A stretch of DNA of 64,000 nucleotides. Origin: Candidatus Gottesmanbacteria bacterium (GTDB lineage Bacteria > Patescibacteriota > Microgenomatia > UBA10105 > UBA927). Under the pieces are notes generated by a model that worked only from the letters and a program-made list of their open reading frames with translations, was not told the origin of the DNA and did no database searches. Of the stretch, positions 59,028 through 61,244 are shown one piece after another (the stretch's first letter is position 1; the number at the start of each line of letters is the position of its first letter). The stretch is taken from the NCBI GenBank assembly GCA_023245335.1, contig JAHFKK010000001.1:156152-220151 (forward strand), written 5' to 3'. A program made the position numbers and the translations under genes.

Positions 59028-59324
59028 TTATTGTGTTGGGATGGTAAACGATGTGACGTCGACATTCGTAAACACGGAGATCGTTTTGATGATAAGAAAA
59101 GCAAGCGACATGATGACAAGCCCCACGACTGCCGAGGTGACTGTTCCGCGGGCGGCCTCAAGTTTTTTTTGGTCTCCTGCGGAAAAGAGGAAATTAAACC
59201 CACCGACCAAAAGCATAATAAATAGCGCGACCGCCCCCAGTGACACGAGGGATGTCACGACGTTGGCGAACATAGGTTCGAGGCAGCGTATGGTCGCAAC
59301 ACCTTGAACAGCACAGTCACGCAT
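59028..59324 (-). CDS. T4SS pilin-like protein (TrbC/VirB2-like, CPR type), paralogue 1
   Basis: Core motif GGFNFLFSAGDQKKLEAARGTVTSAVVGLVIM with an N-terminal TM. Confidence 0.65.
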   Translation of the reverse strand: MRDCAVQGVATIRCLEPMFANVVTSLVSLGAVALFIMLLVGGFNFLFSAGDQKKLEAARGTVTSAVVGLVIMSLAFLIIKTISVFTNVDVTSFTIPTQ

Positions 59325-59377
59325 ATATATGTATTATTACGTATGGAAACGCTGGAGACAAGACACAAAGATGAAGT

Positions 59378-59707
59378 TTAGTATGGTTTCGGGAGCGAGA
59401 TAGTGCCGCCGATAATCTGCACGCCCAAAAAGTTTTGGACGAGCGTCATAATGGCCCAAGCCGAACCGACGACAATAAGTCCGACAATGGCGTGGGTAAT
59501 TTTGTTGCGTGCTTCTTCCATGCCGGCTTTATCGCCGCCCGAAGTAATCCACTTGATTCCTCCGAGGACCAGGTAGAGAAATGCTAAAAGTGAGGCAAGA
59601 ATAAGTATCGTGCCTACAAGTGCGCTGATAAGCTGTCCGAGATCAGAAATTTTGAACGTCGGGGGCTGGGGAACATTAAGGGTTGCTTGGGCAAAAACTT
59701 TTTCCAT
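59378..59707 (-). CDS. T4SS pilin-like protein, paralogue 2
   Basis: GGIKWITSGGDKAGMEEARNKITHAIVGLIVV. Confidence 0.65.
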   Translation of the reverse strand: MEKVFAQATLNVPQPPTFKISDLGQLISALVGTILILASLLAFLYLVLGGIKWITSGGDKAGMEEARNKITHAIVGLIVVGSAWAIMTLVQNFLGVQIIGGTISLPKPY

Positions 59708-59802
59708 AATAATTTCCTTCCTTCAACGCTATTTAGTATAGTCTACCATTTATTTTTGCGCAACGGTGCGGGCGTTGTCAACACGGAACTTTCTTCTCGT
59801 TA

Positions 59803-60150
59803 TTACTGTTGGACAAGCGTCGGAAACTGGAGATTGGGAAATTGTATGCCCAGGAAGTTGCCGACGACGGTCATAAGTGCCCACGCTGCACCCACAATGA
59901 CAAGACCGACCAGCGCATTGGTAATTTTATCCCGTGAGGATTCTAGCTTCGCTTTGTCGCCACCCGAAGTAATCCAATCAAATCCCCCCAAGATGAGAAA
60001 GAGTAGCGCACCAAGGAATGAGACGATGAGAAGCACACCAACCAGTCCGGAGATAAGCGATCCAATAGCAGGTGGTCCCGCCTCGCTGCCGCCGCTCCCG
60101 AGTGTAGTGGGAAGTACCGGATTCGTGATTTGTGCGAGATATTTGGTCAT
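59803..60150 (-). CDS. T4SS pilin-like protein, paralogue 3
   Basis: GGFDWITSGGDKAKLESSRDKITNALVGLVIV. Confidence 0.65.
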   Translation of the reverse strand: MTKYLAQITNPVLPTTLGSGGSEAGPPAIGSLISGLVGVLLIVSFLGALLFLILGGFDWITSGGDKAKLESSRDKITNALVGLVIVGAAWALMTVVGNFLGIQFPNLQFPTLVQQ

Positions 60151-60154
60151 AGCG

Positions 60155-60541
60155 TCACCGTAACGGGTTTAGGTTATTGAGTAGGTCGCCGGGATTTTGG
60201 ATAGTCAAATCAACATTCAGAAACGTACCGGCAAGTGCCAAGATTGCCCAGCCGGCGACGACCACAATAAGTCCGATGAGGGCGTTGGTGAGCTTATCCC
60301 GTGAGGCCTGAAGCTTCGCTTTGTCGCCACCCGAGCTTATCCAGTTGAATCCGCCAATGACGAATTGAAAAAGAAACCAAATACCCGCCGCAACCGTCAT
60401 AATGCCGATCGTAGAGGAGACAATAGTAGTAATCCCTTTGAGCCCGCTTGCCCCGGACGTATCGCCACTAATGTTGCCAAATGGCCCGAGTCCTTCTCCG
60501 CCGATTTTCCCAAGTGGTACTGCCTGCGCTAAATGATGCAT
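60155..60541 (-). CDS. T4SS pilin-like protein, paralogue 4
   Basis: GGFNWISSGGDKAKLQASRDKLTNALIGLIVV. Its DNA is near-identical over ~50 nt to paralogue 3 (59930-59980 vs 60290-60340). Confidence 0.65.
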   Translation of the reverse strand: MHHLAQAVPLGKIGGEGLGPFGNISGDTSGASGLKGITTIVSSTIGIMTVAAGIWFLFQFVIGGFNWISSGGDKAKLQASRDKLTNALIGLIVVVAGWAILALAGTFLNVDLTIQNPGDLLNNLNPLR

Positions 60542-60544
60542 ATG

Positions 60545-60907
60545 CTATTGCGGACCGTAAATGGTCGGATTCAAGATAAAGTCCGCACGACCAAAGATAA
60601 GATACCCAAAGAGTGACGCGATGGCAAACGAGCCGACGATGATGATAAGCCCCAAGAGTGATTGCCAGATACGATCCCACGCAGAAGCGAGCTTTTTGCT
60701 GTCGCCCCCGGCGTTTATATACGCAAATCCCGCAATGAGAAAGTTAAAAAGTGCGTAAATCCCCGCAACCACAAAAAATAATCGGATGACGTTCGTGATA
60801 AACAGTCCGACCGCACCGGTTTGGACGCTTCCATAGCCGGTTTGATCCAGTGGGCTTTGGATTGATCCAACGAGATTGTCGGCGATGACACGTACCCCTT
60901 GTTGCAT
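60545..60907 (-). CDS. T4SS pilin-like protein, paralogue 5
   Basis: AGFAYINAGGDSKKLASAWDRIWQSLLGLIII. Confidence 0.6.
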   Translation of the reverse strand: MQQGVRVIADNLVGSIQSPLDQTGYGSVQTGAVGLFITNVIRLFFVVAGIYALFNFLIAGFAYINAGGDSKKLASAWDRIWQSLLGLIIIVGSFAIASLFGYLIFGRADFILNPTIYGPQ

Positions 60908-60914
60908 AAGCGTA

Positions 60915-61244
60915 TTATACCTGCGGCGATAAAATGTGCAGTCCGGTGACGACTTCTATGATCTGCACAATCCAAAATGACCCGAGAACGACAAGAAGTC
61001 CGATGACCGCGCCGGTTATAGCAGCTTTTCCCTGTTCTGCTTTTTTCGCGTCTCCTGCGGCTACTATAACTTGAAAACCACCGAATATCAATAAAATAAA
61101 ACTGATGAGACCGGCAAAAACGAATGCATTCCTGACGATTGCCGTCACAAGCGGGCCGAATGAGTTGAGATTGGGGTTGGGAGCGAGAGATTGCAAATCC
61201 ACGGCATAAACGATCATATTTTCAGTGTAGGGAATTTGAGGCAT
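60915..61244 (-). CDS. T4SS pilin-like protein, paralogue 6
   Basis: GGFQVIVAAGDAKKAEQGKAAITGAVIGLLVV. Confidence 0.6.
   Translation of the reverse strand: MPQIPYTENMIVYAVDLQSLAPNPNLNSFGPLVTAIVRNAFVFAGLISFILLIFGGFQVIVAAGDAKKAEQGKAAITGAVIGLLVVLGSFWIVQIIEVVTGLHILSPQV

Follow-up and report, generated by a model that had tools for sequence, protein, structure and literature searches.

Six consecutive minus-strand genes in a 64,000-nucleotide (nt) stretch of a Candidatus Gottesmanbacteria genome (contig JAHFKK010000001.1, positions 156,152 to 220,151; from now on referred to as the window) encode small membrane proteins related to the pilins of type IV secretion systems (T4SSs). They are here numbered p1 to p6 from the lowest coordinates upwards, and transcription runs from p6 to p1. 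Our overall reading, which we hold to be moderately probable, is that the array represents an ancient six-subunit T4SS pilin module, with p2 as major subunit and five specialised partners, that builds a filament or channel extension contacting a host cell. Judged by their orthologues, the six paralogues diverged anciently and their order has been fixed across family-level divergence; every copy, termini included, appears to be under strong purifying selection.

An earlier reading made from the sequence alone had described six consecutive open reading frames (ORFs) of 98-128 amino acids (aa) on the minus strand at 59028-61244 and had assigned them to one T4SS pilin family. Exactly these ORFs were found, all intact (Table 1), and a common family is borne out by matches of all six to both the Pfam family PF18895 (T4SS_pilin) and the NCBIfam family NF045849. 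For PF18895, E-values range from 1e-11 to 4e-4, with p1, p2 and p3 above the gathering score of 26.6 bits and p4, p5 and p6 below it, the latter three aligning over almost the full model (E 2e-5 to 4e-4). All 90 members of a family alignment (A2), p1-p6 included, match PF18895 at E<0.1 and, taken as a paralogous set, p1-p6 can on this basis be assigned to the family. NF045849, a family from Mycoplasma integrative and conjugative elements (ICEs), aligns with each of the six over almost its whole 80-position model at 14.3-26.2 bits (p6: E=4.5e-6), with a cut-off of 40, which marks them as probable relatives and not members. A profile built from p1-p6 retrieved 70,255 cluster representatives at E≤1e-3. 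p3 has 507 homologues in the database, the nearest named ones coming from Candidatus Woesebacteria, Gottesmanbacteria, Roizmanbacteria and Microgenomates metagenome-assembled genomes (MAGs). Pairs among the six share 20-53% protein identity, highest for p2/p3 (53%) and 39% for p3/p4, and 39-60% DNA identity. Only seven columns of the six-paralogue alignment are invariant, the start methionine included. The core motif that had been quoted for the whole array fits p3 and p4 fully and p2 nearly, but p1, p5 and p6 only loosely.

The comparison set consisted of contigs reached via homologues of p3 and of 80 loci reached via the 539-aa membrane protein encoded directly downstream of p1. The order p6-p5-p4-p3-p2-p1, followed by the membrane protein gene, is present in 13 relatives (L003-L011, L013, L014, L017 and L075). 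Eleven of these carry all six genes, while L008 ends at a contig edge before p6 and L009 has no detected p6 orthologue. Across the 13 relatives, best matches at the same position score 86-190 bits versus 41-107 bits for the next-best paralogue, and the set extends to Gottesmanbacteria in which the membrane protein is only about 46% identical. Positional orthologues of p5 are 53-77% identical and those of p2, the most conserved paralogue, 61-85%, with 95% identity in the loop. Distant arrays of 6-9 genes keep the same order, their extra copies being mostly p2-like or p5-like; in the 52 loci that span 15 kb or more, maximum array size is 6 genes in 13 loci, 7-9 in 14 and 5 in 4. Because six positional orthologues recur in the same order across relatives and distant arrays, the duplications predate these lineages. 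Core and termini were compared through the proportions of nonsynonymous (pN) and synonymous (pS) differences. In the closest orthologue pair, L008/L013, pN is 0.005-0.05 versus a pS of 0.54-0.70 (p1-p5), and the termini reach a pN of at most 0.08; pS lies at 0.42-0.93 in every pair, giving only rough ratios, and the other pairs, with saturated synonymous sites, point in the same direction.

p3 and p4 share an exact 23-nt run, TCGGGTGGCGACAAAGCGAAGCT, which encodes SGGDKAKL. The sequence-only reading had seen about 50 nearly identical nt here; the likeness around the exact run is in fact 51/62 nt (82%), and outside the loop-coding core DNA identity is only moderate (52% over the whole-gene codon alignment). 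As a null, synonymous codons were resampled from the codon usage of the window with proteins held fixed (2000 trials, 15 pairs). In 0.05% of trials, one or more of the 15 pairs reached a run of 23 nt or longer (family-wise P=0.0005), and in 0.25% a 51-nt window was as good as the best one observed (43 matches; P=0.0025). Relatives have identical runs within their own genomes at the same spot, namely 23 nt between p2 and p3 in L005, 18 nt between p3 and p4 in L014 and 14 nt between p3 and p4 in L008; in L014 both p3 and p4 contain GGFYW, a motif present in no other sampled p3 or p4 orthologue. Since the shared run exceeds the codon-resampling null, occasional short-tract gene conversion in the loop-coding core is plausible, and in this form the gene conversion proposed earlier for p3 and p4 survives. 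Such tracts would occasionally homogenise the loop-coding DNA of neighbouring copies and, given the moderate identity outside the core, would be confined to a few tens of nt. Constraint at the nucleotide level is a possible alternative source of the run.

In each of p1-p6, two hydrophobic helices flank a conserved loop, with equivalent segments in the paralogue alignment. The shared N-terminal transmembrane helix noted earlier is therefore only half of the picture: a hydrophobic helix is indeed there, but a second one lies beyond the loop in all six. An AlphaFold2 model of p2 (helices 20-55 and 60-94, core pLDDT >90) is a two-helix hairpin and, together with the alignment of all six, displays the PF18895 trait of a membrane hairpin of about 70 residues with a short polar loop. 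Profile matches, hairpin model and T4SS neighbourhood jointly uphold the pilin-family identity. Each pilin would accordingly be drawn as a membrane hairpin of about 100 aa, running from a variable outward N-tail through helix 1, a charged loop and helix 2 to a variable outward C-tail, with GGFxWIxSGGDKxKL..R..IT as the conserved charged loop between the helices. The six N-tails comprise 14-36 hydrophilic residues with no hydrophobic segment ahead of helix 1, and the ORFs are not extendable upstream.

The tails are the fastest-evolving parts of the proteins, at 31-73% identity among orthologues versus 12-17% among paralogues, and paralogue-specific signatures are nonetheless kept between genomes. 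The divergence of N- and C-termini claimed at the outset holds among paralogues. Orthologue alignments reveal conserved N-tails in p3 (LAQITNPVLPxSLGGG) and p4 (LAQxxPLGxIGGEGLGPFG) and signatures in p5 (FILNPxIYGP) and p2 (FLGVQIIGGxIxLPKPY). The N-tail of p1 and most of its orthologues contains two cysteines, C4 and C14 (C...ATIxCLEPLF), and cysteine is absent from p2-p6; the two p1 residues might form an outer-face disulfide. Five of the six orthologue groups (p2-p6) open with a near-common motif, M-(E)-K-(V/I/L)-(F/L)-A-Q, which resembles the signal-peptide ends of distant family members (e.g. ...AFAQ in P0121). In p2-p6 it is not preceded by a hydrophobic signal segment and may represent a remnant or serve in recognition.

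Promoter, leaderless-transcript and major/minor assignments were made from sequence conservation. We read the array as several units. p6, p5, p4 and p3 are separated by only 7, 3 and 4 nt, which implies co-transcription, and would form one tightly packed unit behind a conserved promoter; p2, p1 and the membrane protein gene, preceded by gaps of 95, 53 and 36 nt, would each be read from a conserved promoter-like box of their own. The -10 box found upstream of p6 in the promoter scan ends 6 nt ahead of an ATG at 61217, and TTGAC(T/G/A)-N17-TACACT with an ATG 6-12 nt downstream recurs in L003, L004, L005, L007, L013 and L014. As p6 orthologues begin with M-E/I-K-V-F-A-Q, aligned to Met10 of the window ORF, and the conserved box ends 6 nt upstream of it, the true start of p6 is probably ATG 61217 (100 aa) and not 61244. 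Conserved -35/-10 pairs are present at p6, p1 and the membrane protein gene, and in relatives (G/A)ATAAT lies 6-9 nt ahead of the ATG of the latter two. Because the -10 boxes end 6-9 nt before the ATG, their placement suggests leaderless transcripts at these three genes, a feature that would be common in the operon. The sequence ATACATATAT stands ahead of the ATG of both p1 (59325-59334) and the membrane protein gene (58990-58999).

The gap between p3 and p2 contains TTGACA (59776-59781), 12 further nt, the palindrome TTGCGCAA (59756-59763) and then AAT. A -10-like AAAAAT lies at 59752-59757, and TAGACT at 59740-59745 is replaced by TATAAT in relatives. The element pattern occurs a single time in the window, with 0.01 occurrences expected by chance, and once per locus, always in the same gap, in nine independent relatives. 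Alignment A3 shows TTGACA and TTGCGCAA-AAT to be invariant while the flanks vary. TTGCGCAA, a perfect palindrome, is unchanged in the nine relatives within a spacer that is otherwise variable; it could serve as a second -35 box or as an operator for a regulator. Close to the p2 start lies a strong Shine-Dalgarno-like site, GAAGGAAGGA, with GGAGGA at the same position in relatives; no comparable site was found ahead of the other five pilin genes.

Transcribed divergently from p6 are genes for an extracytoplasmic function (ECF)-type sigma factor (61278-61817, plus strand; 179 aa as called in L001) and for a Yip1-domain membrane protein (61946-62698, plus strand). Also divergent from p6, on the plus strand at 61821-62051, is a gene for a 76-aa single-helix membrane protein, possibly an anti-sigma factor. 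The positions of the sigma factor and 76-aa genes are kept in all five independent related loci with examined gene calls (L003-L006; L001 and L002 are the window's own sequence) and that of the Yip1 gene in all but L004. All three proteins are candidate regulators of the array.

In the reading we favour, the six genes would form the pilin module of the T4SS and encode six old, non-interchangeable subunits. p2 would be the major, most abundantly made one, because a conserved consensus promoter combined with a strong ribosome-binding site is found only there and because it is the most conserved paralogue; that extra copies in larger arrays are mostly p2-like was also counted for p2 being singled out. 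The step from these signals to a major p2 and five minor subunits is one that we infer. The other five would be specialised minor subunits with initiation, tip, adaptor or base roles, and all six would assemble into a T4SS-associated filament or channel extension in contact with the host cell. A division of labour among subunits occurs in type IV pili and in the pseudopili of type II secretion; we know of no such arrangement in VirB2-type pili, which are homopolymers with a VirB5 tip. A putative heteropolymeric or otherwise multi-subunit assembly is possible and favoured here. An analogous host-contact role has been proposed for the essential pilin array of Southlakia epibionticum, and in other Patescibacteria the unknown genes with the highest expression include T4SS pilins (PMC10936435). 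A more specific proposal, that Microgenomatia possess an obligately multi-subunit T4SS filament or channel extension with a major p2 and five conserved, non-interchangeable minor subunits, whose order and separate promoters were fixed before Woesebacteria and Gottesmanbacteria split, is tentative, and we would not be surprised to see it fail.

Several observations weigh against this favoured reading. p4, p5 and p6 lie under the PF18895 gathering score, and matches to the Pfam TrbC/VirB2 family (PF04956, gathering score 27.9 bits) are all sub-threshold, with p5 the only match among p1-p6 (17.1 bits, E=0.0067) and five sub-threshold matches among 90 family members. A family-profile search of PDB sequences returned no pilin and nothing significant; at the sequence level, the solved VirB2, TraA and TrbC structures are thus unmatched. 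To our knowledge, filament formation has yet to be demonstrated for any PF18895 protein. Hydropathy of the six N-tails, with no dedicated predictor run, indicates no cleavable N-terminal signal peptide, unlike in VirB2, TraA and TrbC propilins. Synonymous divergence (dS) is near saturation in all available pairs, which leaves dN/dS rough, and expression signals and subunit ranks alike are assigned by conservation alone.

Other explanations concern first of all how the copies arose and what they are for. That they are hydrophobic low-complexity ORFs alike by chance, or mostly pseudogenes, has practically no probability left. They are short and hydrophobic, and half of them miss the Pfam gathering score, but the conserved hydrophilic loop motif is not low-complexity and the ORFs are kept intact as orthologues under purifying selection; with the PF18895 matches and the breadth of the six-gene profile search, this rules the artefact out. 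Recent tandem duplication with copies still homogenised by concerted evolution, as the sequence-only reading had it, is very improbable. The 23-nt run of p3 and p4, significant against codon resampling, and the similar runs in L005, L008 and L014 would fit it, but the protein and DNA identities among paralogues are low, p3/p4 identity is moderate beyond the core, and each paralogue resembles its positional orthologues in other genomes far more than the adjacent copies, in conserved order, which refutes a recent origin of the six genes. A variation repertoire, in which the paralogues would be alternative surface variants, expressed singly or recombined for recognition evasion or host-strain matching, we consider improbable. 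Variation has been proposed for VirB2 paralogues of Bartonella and Anaplasma, and the same is speculated for Patescibacteria (PMC12102498). Divergence is greatest in the termini, which would lie at the surface of a VirB2-type pilus, short identical tracts within genomes suggest some exchange between copies, and several promoter-like sites could in principle permit differential expression. Set against this are the strict one-to-one positional orthology in fixed order over 13 genomes, the conservation of paralogue-specific termini between genomes, the strong purifying selection that extends to them (pN ≤0.08 where pS is ~0.5-0.8) and the co-transcription implied by the spacing of p6 to p3. Tandem repeats are absent from the array, and its inverted repeats amount to weak arms of 14-21 nt with 71-86% complementarity, none of them long and of high identity and none placed so as to flank a promoter; an A8 run in p1 (59163-59170) encodes QKK. 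Slippage repeats, invertible promoter elements, silent cassettes and diversifying selection, the marks of phase or antigenic variation, were not found in the array. Phase variation was dropped after the repeat searches came back empty, and the earlier suggestion of phase or antigenic variation is not supported.

Another explanation accepts an old, fixed set of six but no filament. The six hairpins would then be integral membrane subunits of the secretion channel or of some other membrane assembly, such as a hetero-oligomeric ring acting together with the polytopic 539-aa protein, and "pilin" would be a family label only. We regard this as unlikely, if still a serious contender. Gram-positive-type T4SSs generally lack pili (PMC10633639, PMC12102498). 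The fold evidence is generic, neither a signal peptide nor pilin-processing genes were recognised in the window, and six distinct subunits, present as a fixed set, fit a stoichiometric complex. Some pilin arrays elsewhere include a gene for one polytopic protein with 4-16 fused pilin domains, which is awkward for a filament because VirB2-like polymerisation would be impossible without processing. In favour of a filament stands profile kinship to pilin-named families, namely PF18895, with p1-p3 above the cut-off, and, sub-threshold only, TrbC and the pilin-like family of Mycoplasma ICEs. The topology and charged inter-helix loop match those of mature VirB2-type pilins, for which T- and F-pilus structures are the established basis. 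Furthermore, the separate strong promoter and ribosome-binding site of p2 suggest unequal stoichiometry, which fits one polymerising subunit better than an equimolar ring.

The top matches of the exhaustive profile search are single proteins with 2-16 tandem pilin domains (P0121, P0145 and P0168), and fused poly-pilins of 552 aa with 6 domains, 1147 aa with 11 and 1775 aa with 16 were found. Two poly-pilin genes, L087 1777-3435 and L088 8001-9128, are uninterrupted table-11 ORFs inside pilin arrays, each second-to-last among the pilin genes captured on its contig. The fused domains match p2 best, by margins so small that assigning them to one paralogue type was dropped.

The array is part of a cluster that we identify as a chromosomal, origin-proximal, Gram-positive-type (MPF-FATA-like) T4SS of a Microgenomatia patescibacterium (Table 1). 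It is chromosomal and close to the origin because dnaA (40795-42237), dnaN, yidC and jag adjoin it and the minimum of the cumulative GC skew falls near 42 kb. The window contains no 16S rRNA gene. virB4 lies about 10 kb (7 genes) from the array. The 220-aa protein encoded just upstream of virB4 matches TrsD and the N-terminal part of Mycoplasma ICE VirB4 (model positions 130-281), which suggests that the N-terminal region of VirB4 has a gene of its own here. All matches of the VirD4-like ATPase to the NCBIfam families CedD, TraD and CD1115 are sub-threshold; the protein has no segment at the hydropathy threshold used and carries DUF8128 according to precomputed Pfam annotation. The 539-aa protein has no Pfam, NCBIfam or PDB sequence match. 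Its gene is syntenic with pilin arrays in related loci, and by position and topology only it is probably VirB6-like. No relaxase domain was detected among the scanned ORFs (nearly all non-nested ORFs of at least 150 aa, the rest being housekeeping).

Convergent with the 539-aa gene is a gene for a 1209-aa protein (53708-57337, plus strand), syntenic in relatives at 1189-1388 aa. Neither Pfam nor NCBIfam gave a match for the protein, which has one hydrophobic helix, at its C-terminus, and a Gly7-His2 tail whose glycines are encoded by a GGTGGC repeat of 3.5 units at 57308-57328; it may be a T4SS-associated component or substrate. Beyond the array, HMG-CoA reductase (62695-63858) opens an apparently complete mevalonate-pathway operon that continues past the window (L001 1-7456) with HMG-CoA synthase, thiolase, diphosphomevalonate decarboxylase, a prenyltransferase and two GHMP-family kinases, probably mevalonate kinase and phosphomevalonate kinase. 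This operon adjoins the pilin array in 6/6 loci examined. Many MAG records with this Microgenomatia-type T4SS/pilin locus (L012-L019 and others) are titled "uncultured Gammaproteobacteria" or "Pseudomonadales" and a few Bacteroidales, Weeksellaceae or Limisphaerales; they are probably mislabelled or contaminated bins.

Table 1 Features of the pilin array and of the surrounding T4SS cluster, in window coordinates.
Feature	Position	Strand	Remarks
p1	59028-59324	-	98 aa; last pilin paralogue; PF18895 31.7 bits
p2	59378-59707	-	109 aa; PF18895 45.2 bits, top score of the six
p3	59803-60150	-	115 aa; 4 nt past p4 stop; PF18895 29.2 bits
p4	60155-60541	-	128 aa; 3 nt past p5 stop; PF18895 21.1 bits, E=3.4e-4
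p5	60545-60907	-	120 aa; 7 nt past p6 stop; PF18895 20.8 bits, E=4.1e-4
p6	60915-61244	-	109-aa ORF; first paralogue; PF18895 25.0 bits, E=2e-5
23-nt tract in p3	59945-59967	-	Candidate short gene-conversion tract
23-nt partner copy in p4	60312-60334	-	Identical to the p3 tract
Promoter-like site upstream of p6	61224-61252	-	TTGACG-N17-TACACT
Internal promoter-like element, p3-p2 gap	59740-59781	-	Conserved in relatives
Shine-Dalgarno-like site of p2	59715-59724	-	7 nt upstream of p2 start
Promoter-like site upstream of p1	59333-59361	-	TTGTCT-N17-AATAAT; -10 box ends 8 nt before ATG
Promoter-like box of 539-aa gene	58998-59026	-	TTGACG-N17-GATAAT
Membrane protein downstream of p1	57372-58991	-	539 aa; ~7 hydrophobic segments
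VirD4-like coupling-protein ATPase	50900-53074	+	Pfam TrwB_AAD_bind, TraG-D_C, T4SS-DNA_transf
PrgI/VirB3-like membrane protein	49400-50725	-	Pfam PrgI 28.1 bits (cut-off 27)
TrsD-like protein	48726-49388	-	220 aa
VirB4-type ATPase	46775-48754	-	NF045971 conju_CD1110 family, 398.7 bits (cut-off 325); Pfam TraG P-loop and AAA_10
M23 peptidase	44520-46769		Near the array

Classical VirB2, TrbC and TraA pilins (PF04956) resemble p1-p6 in their small size, two hydrophobic helices with a short charged loop and location in a T4SS cluster; by analogy, the loop of p1-p6 would form the lining of the lumen, with the termini on the outside. Classical pilins polymerise into an extracellular pilus, in most solved cases together with phospholipid. 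The classical systems, however, combine one signal peptide-bearing pilin with VirB5, whereas the window has six paralogues without signal peptides in a single-membrane cell, and the profile similarity between the two is sub-threshold only. No VirB5 or pilin-processing gene was recognised in the window. The Mycoplasma ICE family Mbov_0395/MMCAP2_0565 (NF045849) likewise belongs to FATA-type T4SSs of single-membrane bacteria, with p1-p6 as relatives outside its cut-off (14-26 bits versus 40), and the alignment has a bearing on a question raised in the literature, namely whether the pilins of Patescibacteria derive from Gram-negative systems by co-option. Tandem VirB2 paralogues of Bartonella and Anaplasma also place multiple pilin genes on one T4SS but, as cited in PMC12102498, are read as antigenic or host-interaction variants, while the window copies appear ancient and order-conserved and lack variation machinery.

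In Southlakia epibionticum ML1, a series of predicted pilins in the T4SS cluster is essential (Wang et al. 2023, PMC10633639); this is the one genetically tractable patescibacterium, and its host-dependent growth requires both T4SS and pilin array. A 2025 review describes the series as six structurally conserved, sequence-divergent VirB2-like pilins (PMC12857230). The window thus shares with it a divergent pilin series of six copies in a Gram-positive-like patescibacterial T4SS cluster. The two differ in class (Saccharimonadia versus Microgenomatia) and in that the S. epibionticum cluster was reported without a recognisable coupling protein while the window has a VirD4-like ATPase; essentiality pertains to S. 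epibionticum only, the window array being known from sequence. L070, the single Saccharimonadales locus in the comparison, has no detectable pilin within its 13 kb. Orthology of the Saccharibacteria set of six with p1-p6, if established, would make a six-subunit design a deep trait of Patescibacteria T4SSs.

The closest counterparts are the 441 VirB2-like arrays of 2-11 genes reported from 383 Patescibacteria assemblies (Quinonero-Coronel et al. 2025, PMC12102498). According to the sections of that article consulted, these arrays have a mean identity of 25% (maximum 54%), are abundant in Microgenomatia and belong to T4SSs whose genes lie near dnaA/dnaN, usually without a relaxase; their copies are described as highly variable, and host-range versatility is suggested. 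The window array agrees with this account in its patescibacterial host from Microgenomatia, its tandem PF18895/VirB2-like genes (the published minimum being two, in tandem or one gene apart) within about 20 genes of a Patescibacteria-clade virB4, its size of six, its high divergence with 20-53% pairwise identity, and a T4SS that adjoins dnaA/dnaN with no relaxase detected. Measured against those sections, it shows no difference in kind and is one more instance; positional orthology, fixed order, purifying selection and an internal promoter ahead of one copy are absent from those sections, and of these the orthology and the promoter count as modest additions. What merits further attention is the positional orthology, the promoter specific to p2 and the fused poly-pilins. 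Arrays of this kind are already published, and the window locus leaves the published picture unchanged but sharpens it: the copies appear to be a fixed set of six conserved, distinct subunits and not a fast-evolving variation repertoire, and the conserved strong expression signals that p2 has to itself speak for a structure of several components.

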